A stretch of 64,000 bases of DNA from an uncultured Actinomycetes bacterium (GCA_963723985.1 CAVRTC010000017.1:94108-158107), one strand, 5' to 3'. Positions 13,023 to 37,701 are shown, numbered from the stretch's first letter. A program made the numbers and translations. Notes: generated by a model from the letters alone, not told the origin.

Positions 13023-14393
13023 ATGGCTCGATCCCGCCGCCTCCGGCTCCGGTCCCGGCTGCTGGCCGCGTTCGTCGGCGGTGCTCTCGTCCTCGTGGCT
13101 GGCGTCGCGCTCCTGAGCTACGGCCTGACGCGCCGGTATCTGCTGACCCAGCGGGAGACGTCGGCTCAGCGGCAGGCCCAGGCCAACGCCCGGCTGGTCG
13201 GAGGGGCGCTCCGCTCGGACAGCGACCTACCGCAGCTGCTCGCATCTCTGCAAAGCCCAGCCGGATCCAGCACGGTCGTGCTCCTCCATGATGGCCGGTG
13301 GTTCGCCGCTTCCTTGGACATCGGTCGGGACGCGATCCCAGCCCCGCTGCGACAGGCGGTGGTCGACGAGCAGAGCCGGGCCCGGCAGCGCTATGACCTC
13401 GATCACGTTCCGCGGCTGGCCGTCGGACTGCCGCTCCCAAACGGGGACGCTTACTTCGAAATCTTCCTTCTCCGGGAGCTCGACCGGACGCTGCGCACCC
13501 TGCGGGTGGCTTTGACCACCGCGGCGGCTGCGGCGATGATCGGCGCCGCCGGCCTCGGGGTGTGGGCGAGCCGCCGACTCCTCGATCCACTGGCGGAGAT
13601 CGGGGCCACCGCCACATCGATCGCCGGGGGGAAACTCGACGCCCGACTTGATGTGGGCAGCGAGGTAGAGCTCTCGGCCCTGGCCGACAGCTTCAACCAG
13701 ATGGTGGCCAGTCTTCAGCAGCGAATCGAGCGCGACGCCCGATTCGCCTCGAACGTGAGCCACGAGTTGCGCTCGCCGCTGACCGCACTCCGGTCCGCCG
13801 TGCAGAACATGGAGACACGTCGTGCCTCGATGGACGAGCGCACCGCCCGTAGTCTCGATGTCCTCTCCCGAGAGGTCGATCGCTTCGAACAGCTCGTTCA
13901 GGATCTCCTCGAGATCTCCCGGTTCGATGCCGGTGTCGTCCAGGCGTCCACCGAGGAGGTGTTCCTCGGTGAACTGGTCTTCCACGCCGTGGAGGCTCTC
14001 CCCGACCGAGACGTGCCGGTGGAGGTGGCCGCATCGGCGACTGACGCCGTCGTCCTGGCGGACAAGCGCCGCCTCGTGCAGGTGATCTTCAACCTCGTGG
14101 CCAACGCCCGCCAACACGGCGGCGGCGTCGAGCGCCTCCGGATCGAAGCCGACCAGGACACTGTCCGAATCGTCGTAGAGGATCGCGGGCCGGGCGTGCC
14201 GCCCGAAGACCGTGAACGGATCTTCGAGCGCTTCTACCGGGGCCGGCAGACGGGCCGCGCCACTGGTGGCGTCGGCCTGGGACTCGCCCTGGTGGCTGAA
14301 CATGCCCGGCTCCACGGCGGGCGGGCCTGGGTCGAGGGACGCGATGACGGTGGTGGCGCCCGTTTCGTGGTCGAGCTCCCGGTGGTCCGGTGA
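13023..14393 (+). CDS. HAMP-domain sensor histidine kinase (MtrB/CseC-like)
   Basis: 2 TM, HAMP, SHELRSPL, NLVANA, DRGPG, GVGLGL. Confidence 0.95.
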   Translation: MARSRRLRLRSRLLAAFVGGALVLVAGVALLSYGLTRRYLLTQRETSAQRQAQANARLVGGALRSDSDLPQLLASLQSPAGSSTVVLLHDGRWFAASLDIGRDAIPAPLRQAVVDEQSRARQRYDLDHVPRLAVGLPLPNGDAYFEIFLLRELDRTLRTLRVALTTAAAAAMIGAAGLGVWASRRLLDPLAEIGATATSIAGGKLDARLDVGSEVELSALADSFNQMVASLQQRIERDARFASNVSHELRSPLTALRSAVQNMETRRASMDERTARSLDVLSREVDRFEQLVQDLLEISRFDAGVVQASTEEVFLGELVFHAVEALPDRDVPVEVAASATDAVVLADKRRLVQVIFNLVANARQHGGGVERLRIEADQDTVRIVVEDRGPGVPPEDRERIFERFYRGRQTGRATGGVGLGLALVAEHARLHGGRAWVEGRDDGGGARFVVELPVVR

Positions 14394-34984: not shown

Positions 34985-35650
34985 TCACCCAGGCGGGCTG
35001 GCGCCGAAGATGGCGAAGACCGTGCGAAGGATCGGGTCGGCGAGGTCGGGTACCTCGGCTGGGCCCCGGGTGCGGATGCAGTCCCGGACGAGCTCTTCGA
35101 GGCCGGCGGCCAGGGTGGTGAAGACCTCGTCGGGGAGTGGCGGGAGCGCGGGGTCCTCGGCCCGGGCCCGCTCGTGGACGTTGCGCCACACACCGCTGAA
35201 CATGGTGAGCATCCCGGCCCGCCGGTCGAGGGCGGCGGGGCCGGCGGTGAGGATCTCGACCTGGAGGGCTCGGGCGAAGGCGGGTTCGGAGGCCAGGAGC
35301 GCCAGGAAGGCCTCCACCCCCGAACGGGCCCGCTCCCGCCATCCGGCATCGGCGTCCGCCTCGGCCGCCTGGCGGATGTGGGCCAGGACCGCGGCCAGTC
35401 CGGCGTCGTAGGCGGCCAGGAAAGAGGCCTCCTTGTCGGCGAACTGCTCGTAGAACGTGCGCCGGGAGACCCCGGCCCGCTCGACCACGTCGGCCACCGT
35501 GGTGGCGCCGTAGCCCTTCTCGGCCACGATGTGGGCCATGGCGTCGATCAGGCGGGCCCGTTGGGAGGCGGCCACGGCCTCGCGGGTCAGGCCGTGCCGT
35601 CCGCTCGGGAGGCGGCTGGCCGGCTCGGGCGGGATCTGACCGGGCGTCAT
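34985..35650 (-). CDS. TetR/AcrR family regulator
   Basis: LPSGRHGL, TTVADVVERAGVSRRTFYEQF. Confidence 0.93.
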   Translation of the reverse strand: MTPGQIPPEPASRLPSGRHGLTREAVAASQRARLIDAMAHIVAEKGYGATTVADVVERAGVSRRTFYEQFADKEASFLAAYDAGLAAVLAHIRQAAEADADAGWRERARSGVEAFLALLASEPAFARALQVEILTAGPAALDRRAGMLTMFSGVWRNVHERARAEDPALPPLPDEVFTTLAAGLEELVRDCIRTRGPAEVPDLADPILRTVFAIFGASPPG

Positions 35651-36988
35651 CGGACACCTCCGGGGAGGCCGGCGACTTCAGCCGTCGGAGGAATCGGCGG
35701 CGCGGACGTGCCGCCCCCGCGGTTTGTGTCACAGCCTGTTCGTAGGATTGGCGGGTGAGGTTTCGGCTCTATCCGACGCCTGCCCAGGAGGAGTGTCTGC
35801 GTGGGCATTGCGCTCAGGCGCGCTTCGTGTGGAACCTGGCTTTGGAGCAGGCCAATTGGTACCGGCCGGAGTGGGGGCCGACCCCGGGTTACGTCGCCCA
35901 GAGCGCCCAGCTGACCGAGGCGAGGGTGGCCAACGGGTGGCTCGCCTCGGGGTCGTTCACCGTCCAGCAGCAGGCGTTGCGGGACTTCGCCCAGGCAATG
36001 AGGAACTGGTGGGCGGGTACTCACCGCCGGCCGACATGGCGCAAGAAGGGCTGCCACGAGGGGTTCCGGATCGTGGCGGTGAAGGCGGGACATCTCCGTC
36101 GCTTGAACCGCCGGGGCGCCGAGGTGTTCGTCCCCAAGGTCGGCTGGGTCCGGTTCCGGCTGACCCGGCCGCTTCCCGCTGGGGTCAAGTCCTACCGGAT
36201 CAAGCTCGACCGGGCCGGCCGCTGGCACCTCGCTCTGGCGCTGAAACCCGAGCCGGTCGAGCGGATTCCCACCGCGGCGATGATCGGTATCGACCGAGGG
36301 GTGGCCAACACCCTGGCCACCAGCGACGGGCAACTGCTTCACGCCCCAGTGCCGACGCCGGCGGAGCGGGCCCGCCTGGCCCGACTCCAGCGCCGTCTCG
36401 CCCGCCGCAAGAAGGGGTCGCGGCGCCGGGAGCGGGCCCGGATGGCGGTCGCCCGTCTGCGGGCCCGGGACGCCGACCGGGCCAAGGACTGGGTGGAGAA
36501 GACCACGACCGGCCTGGTGCGGGACTACGACCTCCTCGCCATCGAGCGTCTGCAGGTGAGGGCCATGACCCGCTCCGCCCGGGGCACCATCGAGGCGCCG
36601 GGCCGCAACGTGGCGGCCAAGTCGGGGCTGAACCGGGAGATCCTCGCCCGGCGCTGGGGCCTCTTCGCTCGCCGCTTGTGTGAGAAGGCCGCCCTGGCGG
36701 GGGTGGTGGTGGTGAAGGTGGACCCACTGAACACGTCGAGGCGATGCCACGCCTGCGGCCAGGTCGCCGCCGAGAACCGTAAGAGCCAAGCGGTCTTCGG
36801 CTGCGTCGCCTGCGGGCATGTCGCCCACGCCGACGTGAACGCCGCTCTGAACATCCTGGCCGCCGGACGGGCGGTGACCGCGCAGGGAGAGGCTGTCGTT
36901 GTGGCCTCGATGAACTGCGAACCTCAACACGCACCTCCCACAGCTGCGTAGTTGGAATCCCACGGCTTCGGCCGTGGGAGGACGTCAA
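35651..36988 (+). mobile_element. IS200/IS605-family element, TnpB-only (IS1341-like)
   Basis: Left hairpin 35669-35688 preceded by GAGG; right hairpin 36959-36978 preceded by GAAT and ending 10 nt later in TCAA; inferred target TCAT at 35647-35650; no tnpA, no target duplication. Confidence 0.85.
35755..36951 (+). CDS. tnpB: TnpB RNA-guided endonuclease
   Basis: FRLYPT, GIDRG (RuvC-I), IERL (RuvC-II), CHAC/CVAC zinc finger, ADVNAA (RuvC-III); TAGGAT 6 nt before GTG. Confidence 0.95.
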   Translation: MRFRLYPTPAQEECLRGHCAQARFVWNLALEQANWYRPEWGPTPGYVAQSAQLTEARVANGWLASGSFTVQQQALRDFAQAMRNWWAGTHRRPTWRKKGCHEGFRIVAVKAGHLRRLNRRGAEVFVPKVGWVRFRLTRPLPAGVKSYRIKLDRAGRWHLALALKPEPVERIPTAAMIGIDRGVANTLATSDGQLLHAPVPTPAERARLARLQRRLARRKKGSRRRERARMAVARLRARDADRAKDWVEKTTTGLVRDYDLLAIERLQVRAMTRSARGTIEAPGRNVAAKSGLNREILARRWGLFARRLCEKAALAGVVVVKVDPLNTSRRCHACGQVAAENRKSQAVFGCVACGHVAHADVNAALNILAAGRAVTAQGEAVVVASMNCEPQHAPPTAA

Positions 36989-37004
36989 CGATCCCTAGAG
37001 TACG
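36830..37004 (+). ncRNA. Predicted omega/reRNA of TnpB (5' boundary approximate; guide = flank from 36989)
   Basis: Inferred from known TnpB biology: scaffold overlaps tnpB 3' end and the right end, guide derives from flanking DNA. Confidence 0.55.
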
Positions 37005-37009
37005 GAAGC

Positions 37010-37633
37010 GTGACCTACGTCGACTCTGACCATCCCGCCGTCGTCGCCTTCGCCGAGCAGGCGACGGCCGGTGCCAGCACCGACCGGGACAGGGCCGTGG
37101 CGCTCTACTACGCCGTGCGGGACGGGATCCGGTACGACCCCTACACGATGTCGGCCGATCCCGAGACCTACCGGGCCAGCACGGTGCTGCGGAGCGGAGT
37201 GTCGTACTGCATTCCCAAGTCGGTGCTGCTCTGTGCCGCGGCCCGAGCCGTCGGTCTCACCGCCCGGCTCGGTTTCGCTGACGTCCGCAACCACCTCAAC
37301 ACCGAGAAGCTCCGGGAACGCATGGGGGGGTCGGATCTGTTCGTCTGGCATGGCTACACCGAATTCCTGCTCGACTCGCGCTGGGTCAAGGTCACGTCGG
37401 CCTTCAACATCGAGCTGTGCCAGCGGTTCGGGGTCAAGGCCATGGAATTCGACGGCGAGCACGACGCGCTGCTGCACCCCTACACGGTCGACGGACGTCA
37501 CCACATGGAGTACGTCCAGGAGCGCGGCAGCTTCGACGAACTGCCGTACGACGAGATCATGGCCGACTTCCGTGCCGCCTACCCCTTGATGTTCGAGGTC
37601 GCCGCTCCCTCCGACGTCGCCTTCCGTCCATAA
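37010..37633 (+). CDS. Transglutaminase-like superfamily protein
   Basis: DSDHP, AVRDGIRYDPY, YCIPKS, FADVRNHL, WHG; TAGAGT 8 nt before GTG. Confidence 0.88.
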   Translation: MTYVDSDHPAVVAFAEQATAGASTDRDRAVALYYAVRDGIRYDPYTMSADPETYRASTVLRSGVSYCIPKSVLLCAAARAVGLTARLGFADVRNHLNTEKLRERMGGSDLFVWHGYTEFLLDSRWVKVTSAFNIELCQRFGVKAMEFDGEHDALLHPYTVDGRHHMEYVQERGSFDELPYDEIMADFRAAYPLMFEVAAPSDVAFRP

Positions 37634-37701
37634 GCAAACCCTGATGGGTTGACGGCGGAAACTCCATAGACAGCCGATGGGTGGCGCGGGACCATCGGTC
37701 G

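Follow-up and report, generated by a model that had tools for sequence, protein, structure and literature searches.

A TCAY-targeted, tnpB-only IS200/IS605 element at a tetR start codon and the placement of its relatives at gene boundaries

In a stretch of 64,000 nucleotides (nt) from an uncultured Actinomycetes bacterium (GCA_963723985.1, CAVRTC010000017.1:94108-158107; hereafter the window), a tetR-family regulator gene and a transglutaminase-core gene are divergently arranged, and the space between them is occupied by an insertion element of the IS200/IS605 family that carries an intact tnpB gene and begins immediately beside the tetR ATG (Table 1). The tetranucleotide at this junction, TCAT, belongs to the left flank. 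We propose, with a probability of about 0.78, that this is a non-autonomous IS200/IS605 tnpB element which targets TCAY (TCAT or TCAC) and survives at gene boundaries. By comparing sister genomes and metagenomic contigs, we establish the boundaries of the element, its target rule, the distribution of its relatives over gene boundaries and the regeneration of stop codons by its terminal bases.

Table 1. Features of the element and its two neighbouring genes, in window coordinates (nt; aa, amino acids)
Feature	Position	Strand	Remarks
tetR-family regulator gene, 221 aa	34985..35650	-	ATG at 35650-35648
Target and left cleavage tetranucleotide TCAT	35647..35650	+	Remains in the left flank; ATGA on the tetR strand
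IS200/IS605-family element, tnpB-only (IS1341 type)	35651..36988	+	1,338 bp, without target duplication
Left-end palindromic stretch ACCTCCGGGGAGG	35656..35668	+	Last four bases, GAGG (35665-35668), presumed left guide
Left subterminal imperfect hairpin, then AGGAATC	35669..35688	+	One mismatch, one G-T pair
TAGGAT, -10-like hexamer	35743..35748	+	6 nt 5' of the tnpB GTG, leaderless-type; also in G003:C248
tnpB	35755..36951	+	398 aa, intact
3' end of tnpB through right end, presumed omega-RNA scaffold region	36887..36988	+	By analogy with TnpB elements
Right end	36955..36988	+	Guide GAAT, perfect 8-bp hairpin, 6-nt linker, cleavage tetranucleotide TCAA
Right flank, would-be TnpB guide	36989..37009	+	Holds TAGAGT (36996-37001), -10-like hexamer of the transglutaminase-like gene
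Transglutaminase-core gene	37010..37633	+	Pfam Transglut_core, E 1.5e-17; GTG at 37010 aligns with the orthologues' ATG

The element and its ends

The domains of its protein identify the element. HTH_OrfB_IS605, OrfB_IS605 (RuvC) and Cas12f1-like_TNB (zinc-ribbon) all score above the Pfam cut-offs, and TnpB residues 3-370 align to the solved ISDra2 TnpB (8bf8, 8exa and 8h1j; E ~8e-31), with an AI-designed nuclease (9yyg) scoring above these structures. Residues D180, E264 and D360 and four Cys, which we take to be catalytic or zinc-binding, are invariant in all three aligned copies. Together with the printed layout of IS608, these matches uphold the first-pass annotation of this DNA, which had read a TnpB element with IS608-type ends and whose listed sequence details are all present in the window. 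Since the element has no tnpA, we assign it to the non-autonomous, tnpB-only type. The source assembly (61% complete, 20 contigs) holds a single copy of the element and two distant tnpB genes. A search of genome contigs with the single TnpB protein returned one relative, in a metagenome-assembled genome labelled Acidimicrobiia, which is the nearest copy elsewhere. The filled junctions recur with zero differences in contigs of three public runs (X2 record 11, X4 record 26 and X1 record 7).

At the right end, GAAT (36955-36958) stands directly 5' of a hairpin whose arms (36959-36966 and 36971-36978) enclose a TTCG loop; folded as DNA, this hairpin reaches -12.3 kcal/mol (z -4.0), and 2 of 200 shuffles were as good. 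TCAA follows at 36985-36988, the cleavage point lying 10 nt from the hairpin foot, and the spacing of 10 nt between hairpin and TCAA that was originally given is correct if TCAA is counted in and incorrect otherwise, the linker alone being 6 nt. The right-end pattern gave 12 matches in 5 of the 264 genomes of the order, all of them in one family, and is conserved in metagenomic relatives. Two subgroups can be told apart among these matches, one with tnpA and tnpB and one, to which the window's element belongs, with tnpB only, and autonomous relatives carrying both genes (G007 and G009; G, C and L numbers are our labels for genomes, contigs and loci) have a nearly identical right end. The right boundary of the window's element is the point where its matches to two sister copies (G003:C248 and G008:C177) end.

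As searches for an empty allele from the window's own species found none, the left boundary rests on homology to left ends whose own boundaries are fixed by empty sites. One of these belongs to G008:C177, where TCAT likewise lies 18 nt 5' of the left hairpin; the first 18 bases of the window's element and this left end are of equal length, with 12 of 18 bases identical. Eight metagenomic left ends of the window-like type (type I, described below) also align with the window's, all with 18 nt from TCAY to the hairpin, and the left hairpin is homologous in sequence and position, at the same distance, to those of relatives (L124, L125 and L154). The presumed guide GAGG occupies positions +15 to +18 from the first base of the element. 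In clean hairpin calls guide and target co-vary, the fourth guide base being A with TCAT and G with TCAC; the exact scheme of pairing between guide and cleavage site that we apply is taken in part from general knowledge of the IS200/IS605 family. The reverse complement of the palindromic stretch contains GGAGGT (from 35656-35661), 5 nt before the tetR ATG, and the corresponding ACCTC(C/T) is conserved in all three intact left ends of the family and in type-I metagenomic left ends.

The tnpA-bearing sister subgroup has CAAG as left guide and TGAC as target in 3/3 copies. Members of this subgroup (L049, L051, L057 and G000:C7, which is L002) lie 3' of TGAC, 18-21 nt from the left hairpin, in a way that fits the same pairing rule, and its copy in the window's own genome is situated 14 nt ahead of an enoyl-CoA-hydratase-like start.

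By analogy with other TnpB elements, we presume that the 3' end of the element encodes an omega-RNA with a guide drawn from the right flank. A sub-threshold Rfam match to HgcC (RF00062; 36887-37001 on the plus strand, 21 bits with a gathering score of 50, E 0.033) extends from the tnpB 3' end across the right end into the first 13 bases of the flank, where an omega-RNA would be expected, and the tnpB 3' region is retained together with the right end in a 147-nt mini element and in truncated remnants. As had been noted at the outset, the flank from 36989 onward that would serve as TnpB guide contains the TAGAGT hexamer of the neighbouring gene. The TAGGAT hexamer ahead of tnpB is, to judge from its sequence and position, a putative promoter.

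An antisense open reading frame (ORF) of 438 amino acids runs across the whole element, from 36963 down to 35647 on the minus strand, and stops at the TGA of the tetR ATGA. At 31 of 42 metagenomic loci the target TGA is in phase with the tnpB codons, and the distances from target to tnpB step by 3. We rejected the antisense ORF as a sign of antisense translation, since it is the usual shadow frame of GC-rich DNA and element length modulo 3 is without bias (18/16/14 over 48 loci). Shadow-frame and shared-ancestry effects may explain the in-phase TGA.

Placement of related copies at gene boundaries

Sister genomes of the same family provide the most direct view of where these elements insert. 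All five assessable copies of the subgroup, the window's included, abut an ATGA start, and four of them are confirmed by empty sites; in each of these four sister insertions the element is preceded by TCAT and followed by the bases that come directly after TCAT at the empty site. The copy in G008:C177, compared with the empty G009:C12, has its TCAT within the ATGATGA start region of an ECF-sigma-like gene. In G003:C248, the copy has a decayed left end and occupies an ATGA at which the stop of one gene overlaps the start of the next in the same direction, a site that is empty in G004:C3, G007:C212, G009:C7, G008:C101 and G006:C94. A mini element of 147 nt in G009:C7 (L052:304-450, minus strand), made up of left end, tnpB 3' region and right end, occupies the ATGA overlap before a lipoate-ligase-like gene, the site being empty in G008:C93 and G007:C170. 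Finally, G009:C3 has a copy with an internal deletion directly beside the ATGA that starts a gene for a secreted protein, and the corresponding site in G008:C27 is empty. Two further genomes (G010 and G011, unpublished) show the same empty sites, and we make no claim on them alone.

The two copies in stop/start overlaps reveal how both host frames are kept. Since the target remains on the left, the ATG of the downstream ORF is retained. The upstream ORF gains a new in-frame TGA because the element ends in TCAA, which is TTGA on the host-gene strand, so that an ORF natively ending NNA TGA now ends NNT TGA. In one overlap the last codon has changed from GTA to GTT, both Val; in the other it is CAT, against CGA in the relatives. 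The terminal TCAA thus regenerates the stop, and only the third base of the last codon is altered.

Two apparent left ends were rejected in the course of this comparison. An 'ACAT' junction in G009:C7 was discarded because relatives show that most of the supposed element is native, the real insert being the 147-nt element, and the left end first read in G008:C101 is native sequence, the insert there being a truncated remnant. This sixth copy, a 5'-truncated remnant without a left end, was left out of the count and was read from G011 together with G007:C438 and G009:C7. It consists of the last ~215 nt of the element (L088; G008:C101, ~13630-13844) and lies upstream of dnaK, beside a CTTGAGT-type inverted repeat; it seems that the native DNA on its left was lost together with the left end.

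A survey of metagenome contigs extends these observations. Scanning with an alignment of three TnpBs gave 403 relatives, from which 80 loci with 54-83% identity were kept, and the junction was placed at a TCAY 86-112 nt, or else 113-165 nt, before tnpB. Removal of 13 duplicates, 12 loci without TCAY and 5 with fewer than 35 flanking codons left 50 loci, 43 of them with a usable right flank. Their left ends fall into type I, which is window-like and has a CCTCCGGRG palindrome, and type II, the majority, which lacks it. Our first statistic, whether the flanking coding frame is in phase with the target RTG, was dropped: GC-rich genes often have GTG-A as an in-frame codon pair, with the result that 33-50% of control TCAY sites satisfy it too. 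In its place we used a two-flank test that rules out a frame running on across the element, with TCAY sites in the same contigs as controls.

In this test, 30 of 43 occupied sites were start-like (frame in phase, no continuation across the element), compared with 130 of 626 control sites (Fisher p 5e-11), which bears out the expectation that start codons are hit above background. An upstream gene ended at the TGA in 24/43 occupied and 35/626 control sites (Fisher p 9e-17), and an in-frame internal codon was found in 1/43 and 252/626, respectively. After collapse to 38 distinct sites, 13 combine start and stop, 13 are start only, 6 stop only, 5 neither and 1 internal, so that an ATG or GTG start is occupied at 26. 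The target is TCAT at 22 of these sites and TCAC at 16 and, with TCAT in the window, this agrees with the TCAY target originally predicted; the right end is TCAA at 31 and CCAA at 7. Domain matches confirm that the flanking ORFs are true gene ends. In four of seven left-flank proteins the Pfam profiles (Aldedh, Thiolase_N, Peptidase_C26 and ADH_N) begin at profile positions 1-6 and inside the first 4-27 residues of the protein, while one of the remaining proteins has no Pfam match and two have their first domain at residue 42 or 92; in all three upstream proteins adh_short_C2 ends at position 234-235 of 236, 4-8 residues from the stop.

Some junctions are held by diverged elements in separate contigs (L110/L164, and L158; L147/L157/L185; L165/L173; L136/L138), for example the start of a thiolase-like gene beginning MTDVAVVGFAQSP. 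These shared junctions could be old inherited insertions or the product of repeated homing.

Origin of the distribution and of the tetR junction

The model we favor follows the mechanism of the family. The element would move as single-stranded DNA, with a Y1 transposase supplied in trans that reads the subterminal hairpins, each cut site pairing with the four bases 5' of a hairpin. GAAT would select the right cut at TCAA and GAGG the left cut, which is the target TCAT, and insertion would take place without duplication, 3' of TCAT or TCAC. On the other strand this target is ATGA or GTGA, which holds both a start codon and TGA, and this would explain why surviving copies are located where genes begin or end: at start codons, at TGA stops and, as the most typical case, at the 4-nt overlap of a stop with the next start within an operon. 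The distribution would then reflect TCAY specificity combined with the loss of insertions that break ORFs. In the window, the element landed on the start of tetR, which is the first gene in a divergent pair. The tetR gene itself is intact, but it has lost its native promoter/operator region, and the GGAGG of the left end now stands 5 nt before its ATG. This arrangement may affect the expression of tetR.

Comparison with relatives supports the loss of the native upstream region. The tetR product matches TetR_N (PF00440; E 7.5e-13, residues 34-79), and its start is homologous to those of the G001 and G002 orthologues, 12 residues preceding a conserved RLPSGRHG by eye. Empty tetR/transglutaminase alleles in relatives have 56 bp (G001:C292 and G002:C259) or 99 bp (G001:C312) between the start codons; these three alleles and the orthologues of G003 and G004, which have a different neighbour, make up the five tetR orthologues compared (loci L009, L010, L011, L053 and L054). 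All five have a GGTACG-N6/7-GTTTC motif 20-30 nt from the tetR ATG, which may be an operator or promoter element and is absent from the window. The only sequence common to the window and the three empty alleles is the TCCCTAGAGT block, which lies beside the transglutaminase gene. These data indicate that the insertion has separated tetR from its native upstream DNA, as the first-pass annotation had supposed. Either ~35-80 bp beside the right end were lost after insertion or the lineage differed beforehand. In L011 (G004:C16) there is no transglutaminase gene, and tetR is directly followed by a homologue of the window gene at 37677. A consensus scan of 35400-37200 on both strands found no sigma-70-type promoter and no intrinsic terminator, with a consensus that covers actinobacterial promoters poorly.

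A different account of the tetR junction had been given at the start. Deletion of 35651-36988 in silico leaves CAT, 21 nt and GTG, with TAGAGT on the plus strand and TACTCT on the other, each 8 nt from a start codon, and the element was accordingly thought to have split a 21-bp bidirectional leaderless promoter, its left end being adapted to donate a Shine-Dalgarno (SD) sequence and to convert leaderless genes into leadered ones. The position of GGAGGT before the tetR ATG and the conservation of ACCTC(C/T) in the family and in type-I left ends both speak for this account, as does the TAGAGT hexamer, which is conserved before the transglutaminase gene (6 nt from the ATG in three relatives' alleles, 8 nt from the GTG in the window). 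A leaderless actinobacterial promoter has a TANNNT hexamer ~6-7 nt ahead of the start codon, at which transcription begins. In addition, TATNGT-like hexamers were seen by eye 9-10 nt before the tetR ATG in three of the five orthologue alleles, which makes a near-leaderless tetR plausible. However, we regard the account as a whole as improbable. Relatives do not support the 21-bp spacer as the ancestral allele, the empty alleles measuring 56, 56 and 99 bp and all five orthologues carrying a tetR-proximal motif that is missing from the window; the minus-strand -10 hexamer is CACTCT in relatives instead of the TACTCT seen here; neither the consensus scan nor a reading of the strand found an outward promoter-like site in the element; and the SD-like bases are part of a palindrome that includes the guide and also belongs to the structure of the left end. 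As a general property, SD donation finds no support: of the 50 unique metagenomic left ends, 6 have an SD-like core 3-11 nt before the host start, and these 6 are type I, which makes donation a subfamily trait at most. Very improbable indeed is that the left end lies further right, CGGACACCTCC being tetR's own leader with a native SD and the contact with the start codon accidental. Native SD regions can mimic a left end, as in the misread G009:C7 and G008:C101, and one tetR orthologue (G003:C360) has ACCTCC directly after CAT; against this, four of the five orthologues have unrelated sequence there, and the stretch aligns both with the G008:C177 left end, whose boundary is fixed by an empty site, and with the eight type-I left ends.

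Whether the distribution itself requires more than selection after insertion depends on the background of possible targets. The window's genome contains 43,255 RTGA sites, of which 456 are stop/start overlaps (~1%), 576 stops only, 5,225 leniently start-like, 28,601 intragenic and 8,397 other intergenic, the last being an over-estimate; since these shares come from crude gene calls (3,584 genes, 77% coding, half GTG starts), they are only rough. Sites at gene boundaries thus make up a small fraction of the possible targets and the great majority of those occupied. We infer that the loss of ORF-breaking insertions accounts for most of this excess. The surplus of overlaps over plain intergenic sites could arise because insertions at promoters do more harm, because elements in overlaps are protected from deletion, or because overlaps are truly targeted. 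An active preference for gene junctions beyond the 4-nt target, in place of selection as the main cause, seems to us rather unlikely; it might come from an accessible single-stranded target at sites of translation initiation or coupling, or from TnpB homing that re-seeds junctions. Such a preference would fit the occupation of 13 of 38 sites at overlaps, which are fewer in the genome than other intergenic sites, the mere 5 of 38 sites at neither start nor stop, and the junctions shared by diverged contigs, but the background shares are rough, shared junctions may be plain inheritance and generic intergenic insertions may be more harmful than assumed. Possible, if doubtful, is a further extension of our own model, in which these elements form a 'gene-junction' transposon clade: the RTGA target and the terminal TCAA would be co-adapted so that both frames stay intact at overlaps, the host would read through the element antisense, the GGAGG of the window's subfamily would re-initiate translation downstream, and an element wedged in this way would escape sloppy deletion and persist.

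Several observations count against the TCAY-targeted, gene-boundary element that we propose. The left hairpin folded alone is not distinctive (z -0.85), and GAGG by simple pairing predicts TCAC, TCAT needing a G-T pair, an exception also present in G008:C177 and L185. No Y1 (HUH) transposase TnpA is encoded within the element, and no PF01797 match was found in the 61%-complete assembly. The element's right flank in the window is unlike the sequence after TCAT in relatives. No empty allele of the same species was detected, the contigs of runs X1-X4 showing only filled junctions and no joint of 35650 to 36989; as X1-X4 are contigs, they are uninformative on the absence of such an allele. In the survey, the junction rule presupposes a TCAY 86-165 nt before tnpB. 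The 12 loci without TCAY, three of them short of upstream sequence, were dropped; CCAT stands at the homologous place in L126 and in the duplicate pair L166/L167, which were among the dropped loci, and L122, kept among the 50, reads TTAT and was scored 'not start'. Of the 38 distinct sites, 12 are off a start codon and 5 are on neither start nor stop, and the 7 with CCAA right ends rebuild no stop.

Significance and relation to known systems

The usual view is that insertion sequences persist either in intergenic DNA or through the disruption of genes that the host can spare. A single tetranucleotide that spells both start and stop, used by an element whose last bases rebuild the stop, offers a single-strand transposon thousands of ORF-preserving sites in compact, GC-rich genomes with few AT-rich targets, and this could help explain the abundance of tnpB-only elements in soil Actinomycetota. 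A further prediction is a class of insertions inside operons, which annotation pipelines would take for ordinary gene neighbours. In the window, a TetR regulator has been cut from its promoter/operator, and functions under tetR control may have been released. The findings bear on TnpB genome editing because natural guides next to a TCAY transposon-adjacent motif (TAM) would fall on promoters and ribosome-binding regions.

The closest natural solved relative of the window's TnpB is that of ISDra2 from Deinococcus radiodurans. Unlike the window's element, ISDra2 is autonomous, with tnpA, and its target/TAM is TTGAT. Karvelis and colleagues reportedly described in 2021 that the guide of ISDra2 TnpB is taken from DNA flanking the right end.

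The ends are best compared with IS608 of Helicobacter pylori, for which the consulted portions of the sources place the left cleavage site CL (TTAC) 19 nt 5' of the left hairpin IPL and the right cleavage site CR (TCAA) 10 nt 3' of the right hairpin IPR, with guides GL (AAAG) and GR (GAAT) (PMC3201880, PMC5934647). Both elements have subterminal hairpins with guides 5' of each, the left one presumed in the window, and no target duplication; the right guide GAAT and the right cleavage site TCAA are literally identical, and in both left cleavage falls outside the element, 18-19 nt to the 5' side of the hairpin. The window's clade differs in its TCAT/TCAC target in place of TTAC, in lacking tnpA and in its high-GC actinobacterial host. 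It is found at start and stop codons, a placement that these portions of PMC3201880 and PMC5934647 do not describe for IS608. The AmaTnpB of Alicyclobacillus macrosporangiidus has TCAC as TAM (PMC10278001), one of the two targets of the window's clade, and it is the TAM that is compared here; the excerpted text of that source makes no statement on where AmaTnpB copies lie relative to genes.

IS1341-type tnpB genes are tnpB-only with a 3' non-coding RNA, termed sense-overlapping RNA (sotRNA) or omega-RNA (PMC4615843, in part). The corresponding 3' region is retained here in mini and truncated copies; the RNA itself is presumed, the Rfam match there being sub-threshold. IStrons and bacterial group I introns are mobile elements rendered harmless to the host gene (PMC3984707 and IStron preprints, as far as excerpted). 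They splice out of the RNA, whereas the window's clade preserves ORFs by choice of site and by its terminal bases, so that the resemblance is one of analogy only. Our search of the literature found no description of IS200/IS605 or TnpB elements at start codons or stop/start overlaps, or of stop rebuilding by TCAA, subscription journals and supplements lying outside its scope. The element itself is ordinary, IS608-like in mechanism with another left guide and target, and TCAC had a precedent as the TAM of AmaTnpB; the new points relative to these systems are the systematic gene-boundary niche and the regeneration of stop codons.

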